The position numbers and the translations under genes are program-made. Shown here piece by piece: positions 10,051 to 51,787 of a stretch of 64,000 bases of DNA (its first letter is position 1; every line of letters begins with the position of its first letter). Under the pieces are notes generated by a model. It did no database searches, was not told the DNA's origin, and was given only the letters and a program-made list of their open reading frames with translations. Origin of the DNA: Escherichia coli (GTDB taxonomy: Bacteria; Pseudomonadota; Gammaproteobacteria; Enterobacterales; Enterobacteriaceae); assembly GCF_044324875.1 (NCBI RefSeq), contig NZ_CP172185.1. The stretch is one strand, 5' to 3'.

Positions 10051-12132
10051 ATGGAAAGCAAACGTCTGGATAATGCCGCGCTGGCGGCGGGGATTAGCCC
10101 CAATTACATCAATGCCCACGGTAAACCGCAGTCGATTAGCGCCGAAACCAAACGGCGTTTGCTTGACGCGATGCATCAACGTACCGCCACGAAAGTGGCG
10201 GTAACGCCAGTCCCGAATGTCATGGTTTATACCAGCGGCAAAAAAATGCCGATGGTGGTGGAGGGCTGCGGCGAATATAGCTGGCTGCTGACCACCGAAG
10301 AAGGAACGCAGTACAAAGGCCATGTAACGGGGGGCAAAGCGTTCAATCTACCGACGAAGCTACCGGAAGGTTATCACACGCTGACACTCACCCAGGACGA
10401 CCAGCGCGCGCATTGCCGGGTGATTGTCGCCCCGAAACGCTGTTACGAACCGCAGGCGTTGCTGAACAAACAAAAGCTGTGGGGTGCCTGCGTTCAGCTT
10501 TATACGCTGCGATCGGAAAAAAACTGGGGTATTGGGGATTTTGGCGATCTCAAAGCGATGCTGGTGGATGTGGCAAAACGTGGCGGGTCGTTCATCGGTC
10601 TGAACCCGATTCATGCCCTCTATCCGGCAAATCCGGAAAGTGCCAGCCCATACAGCCCGTCTTCTCGCCGTTGGCTGAATGTGATTTATATCGACGTTAA
10701 CGCCGTCGAAGATTTCCATCTTAGCGAAGAGGCTCAGGCCTGGTGGAAGTTGCCGACCACGCAACAGACGCTGCAACAGGCGCGGGATGCCGACTGGGTC
10801 GATTACTCCACGGTTACCGCCCTAAAAATGACAGCATTACGAATGGCGTGGAAAGGTTTCGCGCAACGTGATGATGAACAGATGGCCGCGTTTCGCCAGT
10901 TTGTTGCAGAGCAAGGCGACAGCCTGTTCTGGCAGGCGGCGTTTGACGCACTACATGCCCAGCAAGTGAAAGAGGACGAAATGCGCTGGGGCTGGCCTGC
11001 ATGGCCAGAGATGTATCAGAACGTGGATTCACCAGAAGTGCGCCAGTTCTGCGAAGAACATCGTGATGACGTCGATTTTTATCTCTGGTTGCAGTGGCTG
11101 GCTTACAGCCAGTTTGCCGACTGCTGGGAGATAAGCCAGGGCTATGAAATGCCGATTGGCTTGTATCGTGACCTGGCCGTTGGTGTAGCAGAGGGTGGAG
11201 CAGAAACCTGGTGCGACCGGGAGTTGTATTGCCTGAAAGCGTCGGTTGGCGCGCCGCCGGATATCCTCGGCCCGTTGGGGCAGAACTGGGGATTGCCGCC
11301 AATGGACCCGCATATTATCACCGCGCGTGCCTATGAACCGTTTATCGAGCTGTTGCGTGCCAATATGCAAAACTGCGGCGCATTACGAATTGACCATGTG
11401 ATGTCGATGCTGCGTTTGTGGTGGATACCGTATGGCGAGACGGCGGATCAGGGCGCGTATGTACACTATCCGGTGGATGATCTGCTCTCGATTCTGGCAC
11501 TCGAAAGTAAACGTCATCGCTGCATGGTGATTGGTGAAGATCTCGGCACGGTACCGGTAGAGATTGTCGGTAAGCTGCGCAGCAGTGGTGTGTACTCCTA
11601 CAAAGTGCTCTATTTCGAAAACGACCACGAGAAGACGTTCCGTGCACCGAAAGCGTATCCGGAGCAGTCGATGGCGGTTGCGGCGACACACGACCTGCCA
11701 ACGCTGCGTGGTTACTGGGAGAGCGGGGATCTAACGCTGGGTAAAACCCTGGGGTTGTATCCGGATGAAGTGGTACTGCGCGGTCTGTATCAGGATCGCG
11801 AACTGGCGAAGCAAGGACTACTGGATGCTCTGCATAAATATGGTTGTCTGCCAAAACGTGCCGGGCATAAGGCATCGTTGATGTCCATGACTCCGACGCT
11901 GAATCGTGGCTTACAGCGCTACATCGCCGATAGCAACAGCGCCCTGTTAGGACTACAGCCAGAAGACTGGCTGGATATGGCGGACCCGGTAAATATTCCC
12001 GGCACCAGTTACCAGTATAAAAACTGGCGGCGCAAGCTCTCCGCAACGCTTGAGGCGATGTTTGCCGATGATGGCGTGAACAAGTTGCTGAAGGATTTGG
12101 ACAGACGGCGCAGAGCGGCAGCGAAGAAGTAG
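10051..12132 (+). CDS. malQ: 4-alpha-glucanotransferase (amylomaltase)
   Basis: 693-aa ORF 10 bp downstream of malP; recognised MalQ. Confidence 0.95.
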   Translation: MESKRLDNAALAAGISPNYINAHGKPQSISAETKRRLLDAMHQRTATKVAVTPVPNVMVYTSGKKMPMVVEGCGEYSWLLTTEEGTQYKGHVTGGKAFNLPTKLPEGYHTLTLTQDDQRAHCRVIVAPKRCYEPQALLNKQKLWGACVQLYTLRSEKNWGIGDFGDLKAMLVDVAKRGGSFIGLNPIHALYPANPESASPYSPSSRRWLNVIYIDVNAVEDFHLSEEAQAWWKLPTTQQTLQQARDADWVDYSTVTALKMTALRMAWKGFAQRDDEQMAAFRQFVAEQGDSLFWQAAFDALHAQQVKEDEMRWGWPAWPEMYQNVDSPEVRQFCEEHRDDVDFYLWLQWLAYSQFADCWEISQGYEMPIGLYRDLAVGVAEGGAETWCDRELYCLKASVGAPPDILGPLGQNWGLPPMDPHIITARAYEPFIELLRANMQNCGALRIDHVMSMLRLWWIPYGETADQGAYVHYPVDDLLSILALESKRHRCMVIGEDLGTVPVEIVGKLRSSGVYSYKVLYFENDHEKTFRAPKAYPEQSMAVAATHDLPTLRGYWESGDLTLGKTLGLYPDEVVLRGLYQDRELAKQGLLDALHKYGCLPKRAGHKASLMSMTPTLNRGLQRYIADSNSALLGLQPEDWLDMADPVNIPGTSYQYKNWRRKLSATLEAMFADDGVNKLLKDLDRRRRAAAKK

Positions 12133-12147
12133 TAGGGTGCGGTTGAT

Positions 12148-12168
12148 GCCGGATGCGATGCATCCGGC
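12148..12168. repeat. REP-type palindromic unit between convergent malQ and gntT
   Basis: gccggatgcgatgcatccggc hairpin. Confidence 0.55.
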
Positions 12169-12179
12169 AGTCAGTGTTA

Positions 12180-25729: not shown

Positions 25730-25743
25730 ATAAAACGGGAGGC

Positions 25744-25773
25744 GAAGGTGCCTCCCGTTTTGCTTTCTATAAG
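25744..25773. terminator. bidirectional rho-independent terminator between envZ and pck
   Basis: aaaacgggaggc-gaag-gtgcctcccgtttt hairpin flanked by A-run and T-run. Confidence 0.6.
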
Positions 25774-29531: not shown

Positions 29532-29562
29532 CAAAGCGCATCAGGTGTATTAGTCGTAAAAT

Positions 29563-29586
29563 CCGGCAGAGCTCTCTCTGCCGGAC
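29563..29586. terminator. hairpin between convergent yhgE and hslO
   Basis: tccggcagag-ctct-ctctgccgga inverted repeat. Confidence 0.5.
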
Positions 29587-34696: not shown

Positions 34697-34798
34697 TGTG
34701 CGGCTCCTGCAATATATTGATTTTTCTAGATGTTGCTAGACGGGTAAAGTGTTCACGCCGTATCCGGTATAAACAAAGTGCACTTTGTCAGCAAACTT

Positions 34799-34822
34799 AA
34801 AAAGGCGCTGAAGCGCCTTTTT
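34799..34822. terminator. bidirectional rho-independent terminator between nudE and mrcA
   Basis: aaaaaggcgc-tgaa-gcgccttttt. Confidence 0.6.
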
Positions 34823-34824
34823 AA

Positions 34825-46617: not shown

Positions 46618-47614
46618 GCCCATCGTTTTTAGTGGCGCACAGCCCTCAGGTGAATTGACCATTGGTAACTACATGGGTGCGCTGCGTCAGTGGGTAAACA
46701 TGCAGGATGACTACCATTGCATTTACTGTATCGTTGACCAACACGCGATCACCGTGCGCCAGGATGCACAGAAGCTGCGTAAAGCGACGCTGGATACGCT
46801 GGCCTTGTATCTGGCTTGTGGTATCGATCCTGAGAAAAGCACCATTTTTGTTCAGTCCCACGTACCAGAACATGCGCAGTTAGGCTGGGCACTGAACTGC
46901 TATACCTACTTCGGCGAACTGAGCCGCATGACGCAGTTTAAAGATAAATCTGCGCGTTATGCCGAGAACATCAATGCTGGTCTGTTTGACTATCCGGTGC
47001 TGATGGCAGCGGACATCCTGCTGTATCAAACTAATCTGGTACCGGTGGGTGAAGACCAGAAACAGCACCTGGAACTGAGCCGCGATATCGCCCAGCGTTT
47101 TAACGCGCTGTATGGCGAGATCTTTAAAGTGCCGGAGCCGTTTATTCCGAAATCTGGCGCGCGCGTAATGTCGCTGCTGGAGCCGACCAAAAAGATGTCC
47201 AAGTCTGACGATAACCGCAATAACGTTATCGGCCTGCTGGAAGATCCGAAATCGGTGGTGAAGAAAATCAAACGCGCGGTCACCGACTCCGACGAGCCGC
47301 CGGTAGTTCGCTACGATGTGCAGAACAAAGCGGGCGTTTCCAACCTGCTGGATATCCTTTCTGCGGTAACGGGCCAGAGCATCCCGGAACTGGAAAAACA
47401 GTTCGAAGGCAAGATGTATGGTCATCTGAAAGGCGAAGTGGCTGATGCCGTTTCCGGTATGCTGACTGAATTGCAGGAACGCTATCACCGTTTCCGCAAT
47501 GACGAAGCCTTCCTGCAACAGGTGATGAAAGATGGCGCGGAAAAAGCCAGCGCACACGCTTCCCGTACGCTAAAAGCGGTGTACGAAGCGATTGGTTTTG
47601 TGGCGAAGCCGTAA
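46610..47614 (+). CDS. trpS: tryptophan--tRNA ligase
   Basis: 334-aa ORF; class I aaRS KMSKS motif. Confidence 0.95.
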
Positions 47615-47629
47615 TTTAACATTAATGCC

Positions 47630-47656
47630 AAAAACCGGGGAAACCCGGTTTTTTTA
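47630..47656 (+). terminator. rho-independent terminator of the dam-trpS operon
   Basis: ccgggg-aaa-cccgg stem followed by TTTTTTT. Confidence 0.65.
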
Positions 47657-47724
47657 TCCTCTTTTTGTAATAATCCGAAAAAATGTGAAGCGCCTCGCCG
47701 TTTCCACATCTCGCAGTTGCCACT

Positions 47725-47746
47725 TATCTTCATTTTTATGAAGATA
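47725..47746. promoter_or_regulatory. perfect 9-bp inverted repeat (candidate operator) upstream of yhfZ
   Basis: tatcttcat-tttt-atgaagata, ending 29 bp before the yhfZ ATG. Confidence 0.4.
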
Positions 47747-47774
47747 TAAATATTCATTTTATTGAAAATTTACT

Positions 47775-48680
47775 ATGCGTCGAACGTTTATCAAAAAAGA
47801 AGGCGTCGTCATCACGACACTGGCCCGTTATTTGTTGGGTGAAAAGTGCGGTAATCGACTGAAAACCATAGATGAGCTGGCAACTGAATGCCGTTCATCC
47901 GTTGGCCTGACGCAGGCCGCGTTGAAAACGCTGGAATCAAGCGGAGCGATACGGATTGAACGCCGTGGGCGCAATGGCAGTTATCTGGTCGAGATGGATA
48001 ACAAAGCATTGCTGACTCATGTGGATATCAACAACGTGGTATGTGCGATGCCCTTGCCCTATACCCGTTTGTACGAAGGCCTGGCGAGCGGATTGAAAGC
48101 CCAGTTCGATGGCATTCCTTTTTACTATGCGCATATGCGCGGCGCGGATATTCGCGTGGAGTGTTTACTTAACGGCGTGTATGACATGGCGGTTGTTTCC
48201 CGACTGGCGGCGGAAAGTTATCTCACGCAAAAAGGCTTATGCCTCGCGCTGGAGTTGGGGCCGCACACCTACGTTGGCGAGCACCAGTTGATTTGCCGTA
48301 AAGGCGAGTCCGCAAACGTGAAGCGCGTGGGGCTGGATAACCGTTCGGCGGATCAGAAAATCATGACCGATGTCTTTTTTGGCGATAGTGATGTGGAACG
48401 TGTCGATCTCTCTTATCACGAGAGTTTACAACGCATTGTTAAAGGCGATGTTGATGCGGTGATCTGGAACGTGGTGGCGGAAAACGAACTGACCATGCTG
48501 GGATTAGAAGCGACGCCGCTCACAGACGATCCGCGATTTTTACAGGCCACCGAAGCCGTGATCCTGACGCGAGTCGATGATTACCCAATGCAACAATTGC
48601 TGCGTGCAGTTGTTGATAAACAGGCCCTGCTTGCCCATCAACAACGAGTGGTCAGTGGGGAACAGGAACCCAGTTATTAA
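47775..48680 (+). CDS. yhfZ: putative HTH transcriptional regulator of the yhf cluster
   Basis: 301-aa ORF recognised as YhfZ. Confidence 0.8.
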   Translation: MRRTFIKKEGVVITTLARYLLGEKCGNRLKTIDELATECRSSVGLTQAALKTLESSGAIRIERRGRNGSYLVEMDNKALLTHVDINNVVCAMPLPYTRLYEGLASGLKAQFDGIPFYYAHMRGADIRVECLLNGVYDMAVVSRLAAESYLTQKGLCLALELGPHTYVGEHQLICRKGESANVKRVGLDNRSADQKIMTDVFFGDSDVERVDLSYHESLQRIVKGDVDAVIWNVVAENELTMLGLEATPLTDDPRFLQATEAVILTRVDDYPMQQLLRAVVDKQALLAHQQRVVSGEQEPSY

Positions 48681-48696: not shown

Positions 48697-48807
48697 ATGG
48701 AAACCAGACTCAACCTGCTTTGCGATGCAGGCGTTATTGATAAGGACATCTGCAAAGGCATGATGCAGGTCGTCAACGTACTGGAAACTGAGTGTCATCT
48801 ACCGGTG
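48697..48807 (+). pseudogene. yhfY: 5' fragment (37 codons) of PRD-domain gene yhfY, interrupted by IS insertion
   Basis: ATG at 48697 with upstream AAAGG; frame METRLNLLCDAGVIDKDICKGMMQVVNVLETECHLPV runs into the IS end. Confidence 0.75.
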
Positions 48808-48880
48808 TGCGTATTCCGCTCTATTCGATCACGGATTGGCATCGAAGTCCGATCAGCGATTCGCATCCATTCGATCAACC
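48808..48880. repeat. IS21-family terminal repeat block (istB-proximal end)
   Basis: Reverse complement of the other end aligns over the tcgatc motif; repeated cgatcacggattggcatcg / cgatcagcgattcgcatcc units. Confidence 0.6.
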
Positions 48881-48906
48881 GGGAACTTAACTTTTTCTAC
48901 CGCTTT

Positions 48907-49662
48907 TTAACGCGTTTTTTCGCTGCTTTCCACTACCGGGGGATTTTTCCTCAGTGACTCTCCCTGAAGGACCACTCGGTGTGAGTTATGTACCAGTCTG
49001 TCCAGGATGGCATCTGCTGTTGTTGGGTTCTCCATCAGACCATGCCATTTATCTACCGGGAACTGGCTTACCACTATCGTGCTGCTTTGTCCGTAACGAT
49101 CCTCTATGAGCTCCAGAAGGTCATTACACTGGGCGTTACTTAACTGTTCCAGCCCCAGATCGTCCAGGATTAGAACCTGTATTTTTTGCAACTGTTTCAG
49201 ATATTTCAGCCAGCTGCCATCAACACGTCCCTGAGCCAGTTGTTCCAGTAATCGCCCGGTTCTACAGTACCGGACGCTGTGTTTCTGTCGACATGCCTGT
49301 TCGCCCAGCGCATTGGCTATCCAGCTCTTGCCACATCCTGTCGGACCGGTTATCAGCAGGTTTTTCCTGTGGGTTATGTAGTGGCCGTTCAGCAGTTCTC
49401 TCATCTGTTCAGCCCGCAGACCTCTTGAGGCCGGATAGCGCAGCCCTTCCGGTGTTGCCTGGTATTTCAGGCCGGCATTTTTTCTCAACCGTGCCACACG
49501 GCTGTTTTCCCTGCTCAGAAGCTCGTCATCAACCAGCAGCGTCAGCCTTTCCTCGAACGACAGTTCGTCGTAGGTCTGAGGCGTTTCCCGCTGCCGTATC
49601 AGGCTCCCGGCCATCGCCGGGAGTTTCAGTTGGGTCAGTTTGTTTAACAGGTTATCACTCAT
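48907..49662 (-). CDS. istB: IS21-family transposition helper ATPase IstB
   Basis: 251-aa frame from MSDNLLNKL with AAGGA RBS; Walker A GPTGCGKSW; start overlaps istA 3' end. Confidence 0.85.
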   Translation of the reverse strand: MSDNLLNKLTQLKLPAMAGSLIRQRETPQTYDELSFEERLTLLVDDELLSRENSRVARLRKNAGLKYQATPEGLRYPASRGLRAEQMRELLNGHYITHRKNLLITGPTGCGKSWIANALGEQACRQKHSVRYCRTGRLLEQLAQGRVDGSWLKYLKQLQKIQVLILDDLGLEQLSNAQCNDLLELIEDRYGQSSTIVVSQFPVDKWHGLMENPTTADAILDRLVHNSHRVVLQGESLRKNPPVVESSEKTR

Positions 49663-49678
49663 ACTGTTGTTCCTTCTG

Positions 49679-51214
49679 TCAGTGGTAGTAGCCCGGACCA
49701 CGCAGGTTTTCATGCTCTGAAGCATATGCCGGATGTTGTTCGCCCTGGCGGGATAATGGAAGCTCCAGGTTCTCCCGATGGTGACGCAGCAGATTGTCGA
49801 TAAAGCGTCTGTCAGGGGCGTTATAGTGCAGGGCAACGTAACAGGCCTTTTCCAGCCGTTCCGGGCCGTATTTTTTCTGAAGTGCCAGCAGCCCCAGAAC
49901 TGCACGATAAGCCAGTTCCGGATGGGGTTTTGCCTTCAGCATGGATTCAACCACCCGGCCTGTGGACGGGCCCGTACGTTTTCCCTGCTCGATCAGGCGT
50001 TCCGGTGTCCATGTCCCGTGCTGCCGGTGGCGCTCTGGCATGTGAAGCGGATTGGTTGTGTGTTTATATTCATGTGTGCTGCGCGGATGTTGCGCCACAC
50101 ACTGCCCCTTGTGCCAGAGCTGTACCACCGACTGCCCCGCCTTCAGTGACAGACGCTGACCGACCAGTTCGTGTGGAACGGAGTACCAGTGACGGGCATA
50201 TTCAACGTGGTAGTCAGGGCCAACCTTCACAGCTTTGTATTCCGTGTATTCATAAGGTGCCAGAGGCAGCGGAGAGAGTGCTGGCGCATCCAGTATGCGG
50301 AAGCGTTCTGCACGGGTTTGATTGCCGTACCCCTTCATTGGCCGGTTATTCATGTCTGTCAGTAACTCCCTAAGGCGCGCATTCAGCGCCCTGAGCGTGT
50401 GGAAGGTTTCATTACGGATGCGGGCAAGAAGCCATCGTTCAACGATGAGGACGCCGTTTTCTGCTTTTGGTTTATCTTTAGGTTTGCGTGGTCGGGCCGG
50501 GATGATAACCGTGCCATAGTGCTCAGCCAGTGCCTGATAACTGTCGTTGATGACAGGCTCATATCGATCGGCCTTTTTCACTGCGCTTCTGAGGTTATCG
50601 GGGATGAGCAGCTTCGGTACGCCGCCCAGGAAGGTCAGGCAACGGCTGTGGGCATTTAACCATGACATCATGTCCTGACCTTCGCACGCTTCAACGTAGG
50701 TATAGTTGGACGCCCCCATTACGGCCACGAAGATTGCCACGCGGCGTATCTCACCGGTGTCCGGATTAATAACAGGAACCGTAGGACCACAGAAGTCGAT
50801 AAAAAGCTTTTCGCCGGCACGATGCTCCTGGCGCATGGAGAGACGTCGCGTTTTTTTCCACTCCCGGTAGCAACGGCAGAAGTGCGAGTATCCCATCGCT
50901 TTGTTACCCGCCTGTGCCTTGTATTCCATCCACAACAGTTGCCGCGTCACACCTGGTTTTCTCATTTCCGTATCGAAGTACAACATGTCAGGCATTACAA
51001 GCTCTGATGCAAAGGTGTCTTTGGGCGGAAAAATGAGTTTCTCCAGCGTGTCATGGGATATATCAGCAGGTAATGGCCATGACAGAGAAGAGGCTTTGAA
51101 GCGGGCAAGAACCTCAAAAACGGTTGAGGCGCTGATGTGTAACGTCAGTCCGATACAACGGTTAGTCAGCTTCTTGTCGAACTTGAGCTGAAGGATCTTA
51201 AAACAGGTTTCCAT
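49679..51214 (-). CDS. istA: IS21-family transposase IstA
   Basis: 511-aa frame from METCFKILQ with AGGAG 5 nt upstream; DDE-integrase region with IstA-like RPRKPKDKPKAENGV motif; longer ORF-track start would lie in the terminal repeats. Confidence 0.8.
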   Translation of the reverse strand: METCFKILQLKFDKKLTNRCIGLTLHISASTVFEVLARFKASSLSWPLPADISHDTLEKLIFPPKDTFASELVMPDMLYFDTEMRKPGVTRQLLWMEYKAQAGNKAMGYSHFCRCYREWKKTRRLSMRQEHRAGEKLFIDFCGPTVPVINPDTGEIRRVAIFVAVMGASNYTYVEACEGQDMMSWLNAHSRCLTFLGGVPKLLIPDNLRSAVKKADRYEPVINDSYQALAEHYGTVIIPARPRKPKDKPKAENGVLIVERWLLARIRNETFHTLRALNARLRELLTDMNNRPMKGYGNQTRAERFRILDAPALSPLPLAPYEYTEYKAVKVGPDYHVEYARHWYSVPHELVGQRLSLKAGQSVVQLWHKGQCVAQHPRSTHEYKHTTNPLHMPERHRQHGTWTPERLIEQGKRTGPSTGRVVESMLKAKPHPELAYRAVLGLLALQKKYGPERLEKACYVALHYNAPDRRFIDNLLRHHRENLELPLSRQGEQHPAYASEHENLRGPGYYH

Positions 51215-51337
51215 AGTGCTCCTGGATTTTCTCTTTCTGGACATTGACGTCTCCACTGGTTTAAACACGGCAATGGAGACTGTGGTGAAAAGAGTTAATT
51301 CCCGGAGTGACTGGCAGGATGCCAATCAATGATCGGA

Positions 51338-51445
51338 AGCATGCCAAATCGTGATCGATTGTGATGCCAAACTGTGATCGGAGATGGATGCCAAATCATG
51401 ATCGATTCGAATGCCAAACTGCGATCGATTCAGATGCCATTTTGC
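51338..51445. repeat. IS21-family terminal repeat block (istA-proximal end) with about 5 iterated ~22-bp units
   Basis: gcatgccaaatcgtgatcgatt / gatgccaaactgtgatcgg / gatgccaaatcatgatcgatt / gaatgccaaactgcgatcgatt / cagatgccattttgc. Confidence 0.7.
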
Positions 51446-51446
51446 A

Positions 51447-51704
51447 CCGGTGCGCAGCGAGCAAGGAATGATGGCGATGACACATATGGCGAGCGCACTG
51501 ATGCGCAGTCGCCGTGGTGAAGAAATAGAGCCGCTGGACGCCGAATTGCTGGCAGAACTGGCGCAATCCAGCCACTGGCAAGCCGTTGTGCAATTGCATC
51601 AGGTATTGTTGAAGGAATTTGCACTGGAAGTTAACTCGTGTGAAGAAGGCTATTTGCTGGCCAACCTTTATGGATTATGGATGGCCGCGAACGAAGAGGC
51701 CTGA
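51447..51704 (+). pseudogene. yhfY: 3' fragment (83 codons) of yhfY separated from its 5' part by the IS
   Basis: Frame RSEQGMMAMTHMASALMRS...WMAANEEA is in phase with the 5' fragment once the IS and one copy of accggtg are removed. Confidence 0.75.
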
Positions 51705-51787
51705 AGCTCACTACAAATCCACGTCGCATATCTTAAATATTCAAAAAAATGAATATTTGATTCAAGGAACAGAAACGAGGCAACAAG

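Follow-up and report, generated by a model that had tools for sequence, protein, structure and literature searches.

A conserved, probable palindromic operator ahead of yhfZ and yhfX in Escherichia coli and its predicted recognition by the YhfZ regulator

The subfamilies of GntR-type transcription factors are defined by their effector domains, namely FadR, HutC, MocR and YtrA. Local repressors of this type, such as FadR itself or FrlR, bind as winged helix-turn-helix (HTH) dimers to an A+T-rich inverted repeat at a linked catabolic operon, with the regulator gene being autoregulated and the sensor domain located C-terminally of the HTH. Here, we propose a comparable arrangement for YhfZ, the putative regulator encoded within the eight-gene yhf/php operon of Escherichia coli, which neighbours the frl operon of FrlR and counts among the conserved E. 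coli genes without known function, inducer or regulation. The locus was analysed in a 64-kb window (the whole stretch of 64,000 nucleotides, from contig NZ_CP172185.1), in which the gene order reads dam-rpe-gph-trpS-yhfZ-...-yhfS-frlR. We find that a palindrome just upstream of yhfZ is an instance of a conserved 20-bp unit, ATnTTCA-N6-TGAAnAT (7-6-7), and that this unit is present at three positions, termed O1, O2 and O3, in the yhf regulatory DNA. Judging from their sequence conservation, O1–O3 are very likely functional protein-binding operators. Taken as a whole, we hold it to be likely that O1 is the promoter-proximal member of a three-site set recognized by YhfZ, which would repress its own operon.

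A sequence-only reading of this stretch had singled out a perfect 9-bp inverted repeat ahead of yhfZ and suggested it to be the operator of a dimeric HTH regulator. Sequence and coordinates of this dyad proved exact: it consists of TATCTTCAT (47725–47733), a tttt spacer (47734–47737) and ATGAAGATA (47738–47746), and its symmetry stops outward at the non-complementary pair T47724/T47747. Likewise confirmed is its placement past the trpS terminator in A+T-rich DNA (73% A+T in the 75-bp region that holds the dyad), with the 3′ end 29 positions ahead of the yhfZ ATG at 47775. The stop codon of trpS (47612–47614) is followed on the plus strand by an intrinsic terminator at 47630–47659, made up of the inverted repeat AAAAACCGGG-gaaa-CCCGGTTTTT and a T run (RNA fold of −15.1 kcal/mol). 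Its hairpin (47630–47653) has a G+C-rich stem of 10 bp and lies ~70 bp upstream of the dyad, and the terminator delimits the yhfZ regulatory region on its upstream side.

How unusual is such a palindrome? When the 75-bp region was dinucleotide-shuffled, 0.4% of the shuffles contained a perfect dyad (arms of ≥9 bp, spacer of ≤10); for the 160-bp intergenic region, the figure was 2.7%. The window holds 14 dyads by the same criteria versus 2.9 expected, mostly terminator hairpins or hairpins resembling repetitive extragenic palindromes (REP) that are G+C-rich. The claim that the dyad is uncommon by chance is hence correct in direction, but, judged on sequence alone, chance is exceeded only modestly. 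Outside the yhf sites, such perfect repeats, with arms of ≥9 bp and a short spacer, were noted at 10182–10203, 12147–12169, 25733–25760, 29562–29585, 34797–34824, 57891–57917 and 58735–58762, and they are mostly G+C-rich and terminator- or REP-hairpin-like in appearance. Arms of 9 bp are a property of the window strain but not of the conserved element: in K-12 the site reads TATCTTCA-aattcc-TGAAGATA, with arms of 8 bp, and across species the innermost (ninth) pair is complementary at a frequency of 0.20 compared to 0.23 expected from column composition.

With its 14 specified bases, the 7-6-7 unit has exactly three matches in the 64 kb, all of them in yhf regulatory DNA, and no further site in the window comes nearer than two mismatches (our motif scans covered the window and the fetched yhf loci described below). 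The shorter core, TTCA-N6-TGAA, occurs four times in the window versus 1.17 expected. O1 (ATCTTCA-ttttta-TGAAGAT, ATCTTCAtttttaTGAAGAT; 47726–47745, centre 47735.5) is the core of the dyad introduced above. O2 (ATATTCA-ttttat-TGAAAAT, ATATTCAttttatTGAAAAT; 47750–47769, centre 47759.5), an exact match and a direct repeat, follows 24 bp downstream of O1, and its 3′ end falls 5 nt short of the yhfZ ATG. O3 (ATATTCA-aaaaaa-TGAATAT, ATATTCAaaaaaaTGAATAT; 51737–51756) is an exact match between yhfY and yhfX, centred 41.5 bp ahead of the yhfX ATG (51788); it is identical in K-12 and sits in a second perfect 9-bp dyad, AAATATTCA-N6-TGAATATTT, at 51735–51758. The original picture of a single site was thus right about O1 but had missed its two companions. 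In each of O1, O2 and O3, the TTCA and TGAA words start 10 bp apart, which places two half-sites of two-fold symmetry about one helical turn from each other, and the symmetry of the sites extends outward as T-w-w-A-T-n-TTCA ... TGAA-n-A-T-w-w-A.

Phylogenetic footprinting of the yhfZ upstream region was positive, in that the arms of the dyad are conserved, spacer and flanks diverge, and the non-conservation that would have argued against an operator was not seen. Through alignment of the YhfZ protein, we fetched 80 orthologous yhfZ loci (898 kb) from 18 genera, comprising Escherichia, Citrobacter, Klebsiella, Pluralibacter, Trabulsiella, Enterobacter, Cedecea, Buttiauxella, Chimaeribacter, Superficieibacter, Lelliottia, Atlantibacter, Photorhabdus, Xenorhabdus, Serratia, Providencia, Vibrio and Photobacterium. 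All 80 loci have yhfZ, yhfY and yhfX in common, usually along with yhfW, php, yhfU, yhfT and yhfS. They contain 178 matches to the core, of which 109 are located upstream of yhfZ, 49 upstream of yhfX and ~20 elsewhere; 158 of the 178 thus occupy one of the two upstream positions, while the surrounding DNA diverges. Upstream of yhfZ, the arms are kept in Escherichia, Citrobacter, Klebsiella, Trabulsiella, Cedecea, Buttiauxella, Serratia, Xenorhabdus, Providencia, Vibrio and Photobacterium.

When 35 distinct enteric promoters were aligned ungapped and anchored at the ATG, TTCA and TGAA were essentially invariant and spacers and flanks variable, with the information content of O1 amounting to 1.73 and 1.85 bits per column in the arms versus 1.38 in the spacer. 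The spacer is always 6 nt long and A+T-rich, its sequence being free (ttttta, aattcc, tttaat, aaaaaa). The offset of O1 from the ATG is constant in enterics, as is that of O2 (−22), which is the sole upstream site in Photorhabdus, and the distance of 24 bp between O1 and O2 is exactly kept in all two-site enteric promoters. As for O3, the exact core is found in 49 orthologous loci and a version with one mismatch (TGAT; ATATTCAaaaaaaTGATTAT) in Cedecea, Buttiauxella and Photorhabdus. In Pluralibacter gergoviae, the genes are arranged in the order yhfY-yhfZ-yhfX and the site precedes the first gene, yhfY, implying that it follows the position of the promoter rather than a particular gene. A TTCA-N6-TGAA core also recurs at one coding position, near the 3′ end of yhfY, in several genera (e.g. 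cgcTTCAtgcaaaTGAAgagg; loci L007, L008, L009, L017, L019, L023, L027, L028, L030 and L035), although not in E. coli; devoid of the AT flanks of the operators, it probably reflects coding constraint rather than a site.

Which protein might read these operators? The gene next to O2, yhfZ (47775–48680, plus strand), encodes a member of the YhfZ family by both Pfam and NCBIfam: HTH_41 matches residues 24–71 (67.4 bits; cut-off 25), YhfZ_C residues 75–301 (283.7 bits; cut-off 35), and NF041241 scores 373.9 bits (cut-off 260). The family comprises 727 clusters at 50% identity. In the AlphaFold model (predicted local distance difference test, pLDDT, of 93), the DNA-binding domain is a winged HTH of three helices (8–21, 32–38 and 43–55) and a two-strand wing (59–63 and 69–74), all at pLDDT >90, in which the recognition helix, 43–55, begins at Val43. 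The C-terminal sensor, covered by the structure PDB 2OZZ, adopts a periplasmic-binding-protein (PBP) type II fold according to the model and to Foldseek. Based on sequence comparison, we predict YhfZ to be the protein that binds the operators, an assignment in which we have good confidence.

This prediction draws on distant members of the family, which is split by the start of the recognition helix into an S-V/L-G type that includes E. coli and an (A/S/G)-R-G type. Homologues with merely 29–37% identity, one of them from the Fusobacteriota, keep the motif, and all the distant homologues of the Val/Leu type named here carry it 9–40 bp ahead of yhfZ. The TTCA motif lies directly ahead of yhfZ in L085, L086 and L089 (34–37% identity to E. 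coli YhfZ), and Cetobacterium somerae (Fusobacteriota; helix start S-L-G) has ATTTTCAaaaaaaTGAAAATT 33 bp ahead of the gene. Three Val-type loci, L093, L094 and L095, were picked as a blind test before their DNA was seen; all three carry ATnTTCA-N6-TGAAnAT, 22–40 bp ahead of yhfZ, and L095 has two more copies ahead of a PRD gene. Arg-type loci display a different word. L083 harbours AAAATACAaaattaTGTACATT, of the form TACA-N6-TGTA, at 1401–1414, 29 bp ahead of yhfZ, and L087, where yhfZ is located mid-operon, has AATATACAaaaaaaTGTATTTT twice ahead of the first gene (122–135 and 189–202). None of the 80 Val-type loci contains TACA-N6-TGTA at a yhf promoter. (P0124 was left out of the homologue loci, having no contig on record.) Together, this suggests a specificity switch within the family, wherein one residue (Val versus Arg) goes along with one base (TTCA versus TACA). 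A half-site that changes with the recognition helix favours a linked regulator over a global factor, and the proposal of a dimeric HTH regulator, possibly YhfZ itself, thereby gains support from arm conservation, from the winged HTH of YhfZ and from the helix/half-site correlation.

Alternatively, O1–O3 might be bound by some other protein, be it a global regulator or nucleoid-associated factor with a preference for symmetric A+T-rich DNA (e.g. ArgR, Lrp, Fur, IHF or H-NS) or a specific regulator encoded elsewhere. The sites are A+T-rich, the assignment to YhfZ comes from comparing sequences, the scans covered the window and the yhf loci, and TGAA/TTCA words recur in ARG boxes and MetR sites. 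Yet, the motif accompanies yhfZ into unrelated genomic surroundings and even into other phyla (Cetobacterium, low-GC organisms), for which one would not expect the global factors of enterobacteria; its half-site changes along with the recognition helix of YhfZ, and the 64 kb contain no comparable site elsewhere. The ARG box is TGAAT-N4-ATTCA and the Fur box GATAAT...ATTATC. The half-sites TTCA...TGAA thus run in the opposite order to those of the ARG box, and the outer TATC...GATA in the opposite order to the Fur arrangement. ARG box, Fur box, MetR, CRP, FNR and LacI-type sites were all set aside as candidates in a comparison of consensus sequences, as they differ in half-site orientation or spacing. 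A binder other than YhfZ is therefore improbable.

What would binding do? O1 and O2 are placed between a conserved −35-like TTG and the yhfZ ATG. The probable −35 hexamer, TTGCCA (47717–47722, plus strand), retains its TTG in >90% of the aligned enteric sequences and appears as TTGACC in Serratia; the −10 element is weak and uncertain. Further upstream we note a putative CRP site, TGTGA-agcgcc-TCGCC (47684–47699, plus strand; centre 47691.5), whose left half is perfect and whose right half agrees in 3/5 positions, with AAA and TTT flanks as in the CRP consensus. That consensus is TGTGA-N6-TCACA, and class I sites are centred at −61.5. In the 35 enteric promoters, TGTGA (47684–47688) is invariant and TC.C and TTT are conserved, and E. 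coli, Xenorhabdus and Serratia agree in the distance from TGTGA to TTG, 33 bp, as well as in that from TGTGA to TTCA, 45 bp. The centre of the CRP-like site precedes the first base of the putative −35 element by 25.5 bp and the O1 centre by 44 bp. Provided that TTGCCA acts as the −35 element, the CRP-like site would be centred at ~−61.5, the class I position, with transcription starting near 47753; given such a start, O1 would cover ~−28 to −7 and O2 ~−3 to +17. A literature search returned no report of CRP control of yhfZ. In low-GC homologues the promoter is easier to recognize: Cetobacterium has TTGACA-17-TATAAT, L089 and L095 are similar, and the operator is located directly 3′ of the −10 element. 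This is the position of a repressor and lends independent support to repression, which we accordingly consider the probable, if predicted, effect of YhfZ on the operon.

From these features we infer a mechanism in which a YhfZ dimer would insert one recognition helix (43–55) into each of two major grooves one turn apart. Placed from the −35 region to the ATG, two dimers on O1 and O2 would cover the core promoter and the start and translation-initiation regions; they might thereby occlude RNA polymerase as well as the start of the message, resulting in autorepression of yhfZ. A dimer on O3 would control yhfXW-php-yhfUTS, either by acting as a roadblock or through a promoter internal to the operon. 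In line with this, a 2015 operon-listing paper has php-yhfSTUWX as a unit of its own, consistent with separate control at yhfX. These presumed controlled genes, yhfX-yhfW-php-yhfU-yhfT-yhfS (51788–57830, plus strand; delineated from open reading frames, Pfam and the annotation of an identical strain and of K-12), encode a pyridoxal phosphate (PLP) enzyme, a phosphomutase-like metalloenzyme, a phosphotriesterase-family hydrolase, a DUF2620 protein, the membrane protein YhfT and an aminotransferase-like PLP enzyme. Repression could be relieved by a small molecule related to a substrate of the yhf pathway, which would bind the PBP-like domain and free the DNA, and the CRP-like site may add catabolite control.

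It is conceivable that YhfZ binds the dyads as an activator or dual regulator of LysR-like behaviour. LysR-type activators share the combination of winged HTH and PBP-type-II domain, and Foldseek aligns full-length OxyR and CbnR; moreover, the weak core elements of the E. coli promoter are as found in activator-dependent promoters, and the centres of O1 and O3 precede the start codons of yhfZ and yhfX, respectively, by ~40 bp. However, O2 occupies the gap between O1 and the ATG, and a start 40 bp past O1 would reach the start codon or beyond. The low-GC homologues position their operator just 3′ of consensus −35/−10 elements, for which no activator is required. In addition, YhfZ aligns with LysR proteins at low TM-scores (0.37–0.48) and has no LysR Pfam domain. 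We hence judge activation to be unlikely and retain repression by YhfZ as the preferred reading.

Several observations weigh against autorepression by YhfZ through O1–O3. With respect to the promoter, a scan of 47400–48000 yielded no consensus sigma-70 promoter on the plus strand, and searches of the data of Kim et al. 2012 (PMC3415461) and of the Cappable-seq study (PMC4782308) gave no entry for yhfZ, yhfX or nearby coordinates, so that the position of the E. coli promoter is a prediction from geometry. (Two promoter calls on the minus strand that overlap the yhfZ start were regarded as A+T-rich noise.) The spacing of 24 bp between O1 and O2 corresponds to a non-integral number of helical turns. 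With respect to conservation, Vibrio has no site ahead of yhfX, O1 is degenerate in Photorhabdus, and so is the left half-site in Vibrio halioticoli. Among the distant Arg-type homologues, the site of L090 is merely approximate, L092 carries another dyad (ACCGTAT-N5-ATACGGT), and L091, a G+C-rich homologue outside a yhf operon, has no comparable dyad. The correlation between helix and half-site stems from two clear Arg-type loci and few lineages and is confounded with phylogeny; given this small sample without phylogenetic correction, it is good circumstantial evidence rather than proof. Lastly, the scans extended over the 64 kb and the fetched loci; the YhfZ regulon may reach further, or another factor may own many sites of this kind.

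Could the dyad instead act at the RNA level, its 9-bp stem-loop, formed in a leader or read-through transcript, serving as an attenuator, a stabiliser, a ribonuclease site or a sequesterer of the translation start? O1 and O3 do fold well as RNA (−9.0 kcal/mol, z = −5.7, and −8.2 kcal/mol, z = −4.75, respectively), and a 2010 attenuator screen listed yhfZ, though solely on account of a bacterial interspersed mosaic element (BIME) repeat of K-12 that is missing from the window strain. O2, by contrast, folds weakly (−3.6 kcal/mol), yet is conserved as well as O1. At the variable arm position (the n of ATnTTCA), the two arms are complementary in 27% of 122 distinct sites compared to 26% expected from column composition; as arm positions without base-pair co-variation indicate, the symmetry would be read by a protein and not be kept as a hairpin. 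Beyond pairing, the arm sequence itself is conserved across phyla. The stem of the dyad has two G-C pairs out of nine, no U tract follows on its 3′ side, and the terminator scan did not call it. Nor did Rfam contain a match for the dyad, the sole hit being a sub-threshold one to BSnc120 on the trpS terminator (23.8 bits versus a gathering score of 114), which we take as chance. An RNA function is thus very unlikely. Least credible of all is a functionless chance feature of A+T-rich intergenic DNA, for although short palindromes arise readily in such DNA and the shuffle probability is not extreme, the arms are conserved across 18 genera and beyond while neighbouring DNA diverges, and all three copies in the window fall within yhf regulatory regions.

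The operon itself differs between strains. In the window, an IS21-family insertion sequence (IS; 48808–51446) interrupts yhfY at about codon 37, on the strand opposite to the operon and flanked by the target duplication CCGGTG (48802–48807 and 51447–51452). It encodes istA (548 amino acids; 49679–51325) and istB (332 amino acids; 48907–49905), is 99.4–99.9% identical to ‘ISSso4 family’ copies elsewhere in E. coli, and is lacking in both strain Ecol_316 and K-12. Since the element parts yhfZ from yhfX, the downstream genes would here depend on a promoter at O3 or in the IS. An apparent second copy of yhfY (77% identity) turned out to be a tblastn alignment extension across the IS end and no duplication. 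On the 3′ side of the IS (51459–51704 in the window versus 13250–13500 of L001, the Ecol_316 locus), there are 17 differences in ~300 bp and just two on the 5′ side, which suggests a recombination boundary near the insertion. In Ecol_316 (L001, 17224–18527), yhfT is annotated as frameshifted (pseudogene), and the trpS-yhfZ region is identical to that of the window, where yhfT is intact and yhfY broken by the IS; lesions in the operon thus vary by strain. K-12 and many other E. coli, finally, carry a REP/BIME-type insert of ~130 bp that separates the stop codon of trpS from the terminator hairpin (9480–9620 in L082, the K-12 locus, versus 47615–47630 in the window) and that is missing in the window strain.

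What can be gained from these operators? Literature searches on the yhf genes, the Pfam families and the phosphotriesterase homology protein found, within the library searched, no study of a YhfZ site, regulon, inducer, operon function or pathway. A defined 20-bp operator at three positions, together with a probable CRP site, turns a putative regulator into a directly testable system. De-repression in a yhfZ mutant could reveal the role of the operon, and the operator–YhfZ pair might be harnessed as a biosensor for the inducer and, hence, for the pathway substrate. The apparent switch from Val/Arg to TTCA/TACA would make for a compact, testable case of co-evolution between regulator and operator. 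More tentatively, the YhfZ family could represent a distinct and widespread one-component class that joins a winged HTH to a PBP-type-II sensor and whose operators obey a simple code, the residue at the helix start (Val/Leu versus Arg) picking the second base of the half-site on a fixed 4-N6-4 frame. Together with YhfY, a PRD-domain protein always adjacent to YhfZ, it would couple a catabolic operon of broad phylogenetic range (php, yhfW, yhfX, yhfS, yhfT and yhfU) to a metabolite and to phosphotransferase system (PTS) or CRP status; we think this possible, but doubtful.

How, then, does the yhf system relate to described ones? In architecture, YhfZ resembles LysR-type regulators, its winged HTH being N-terminal and its effector domain, of PBP type II, C-terminal, and ACIAD0746 joins OxyR and CbnR among the proteins aligned by Foldseek. 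Unlike these, YhfZ gives no HTH_1 or LysR_substrate match in Pfam, the AlphaFold model predicts a very short linker in place of a long linker helix, yhfZ is co-directional with and first in its operon rather than divergent, and the yhf operators probably lie over or downstream of the promoter and not at −65. The modelled likeness to LysR proteins is therefore only loose. Two similar dyads over one putative promoter, 24 bp apart from centre to centre, are reminiscent of lambda OR1-OR2, and the exactness of this distance in two-site enteric promoters suggests that the sites may cooperate in pairs. The proteins are unrelated, however, and many yhfZ promoters (in Xenorhabdus, Serratia, Vibrio and low-GC organisms) have a single site. 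As to the upstream element, TGTGA-N6-TCGCC with A/T flanks at a position that would fit −61.5 recalls CRP class I promoters, from which it differs in having one perfect half-site only.

The closest parallel remains with the GntR-type local repressors, and NCBI indeed names YhfZ a GntR-family regulator. The HTH of YhfZ nevertheless belongs to a separate family, HTH_41: its N-terminal 87 residues match HTH_41 and, weakly, HTH_24, with no match to PF00392 (GntR) at E ≤ 10. Precomputed GntR hits exist in the distant family members P0143 (weak) and P0167, so that the relationship is probably remote rather than absent. In the AlphaFold model, moreover, the DNA-binding domain shows the GntR topology of three helices and a two-strand wing. 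The effector domain (YhfZ_C, 2OZZ), with its PBP-type-II fold, is not of the FadR, HutC, MocR or YtrA type, and, to our knowledge, TTCA-N6-TGAA is not among the motifs of the GntR subfamilies. A local HTH repressor acting on a palindromic operator is a textbook mechanism, and the operator reported here, albeit previously undescribed, is conventional. It would thus add a member to this class of systems rather than a principle, and its value lies in the practical handle that it offers on a widely conserved operon.

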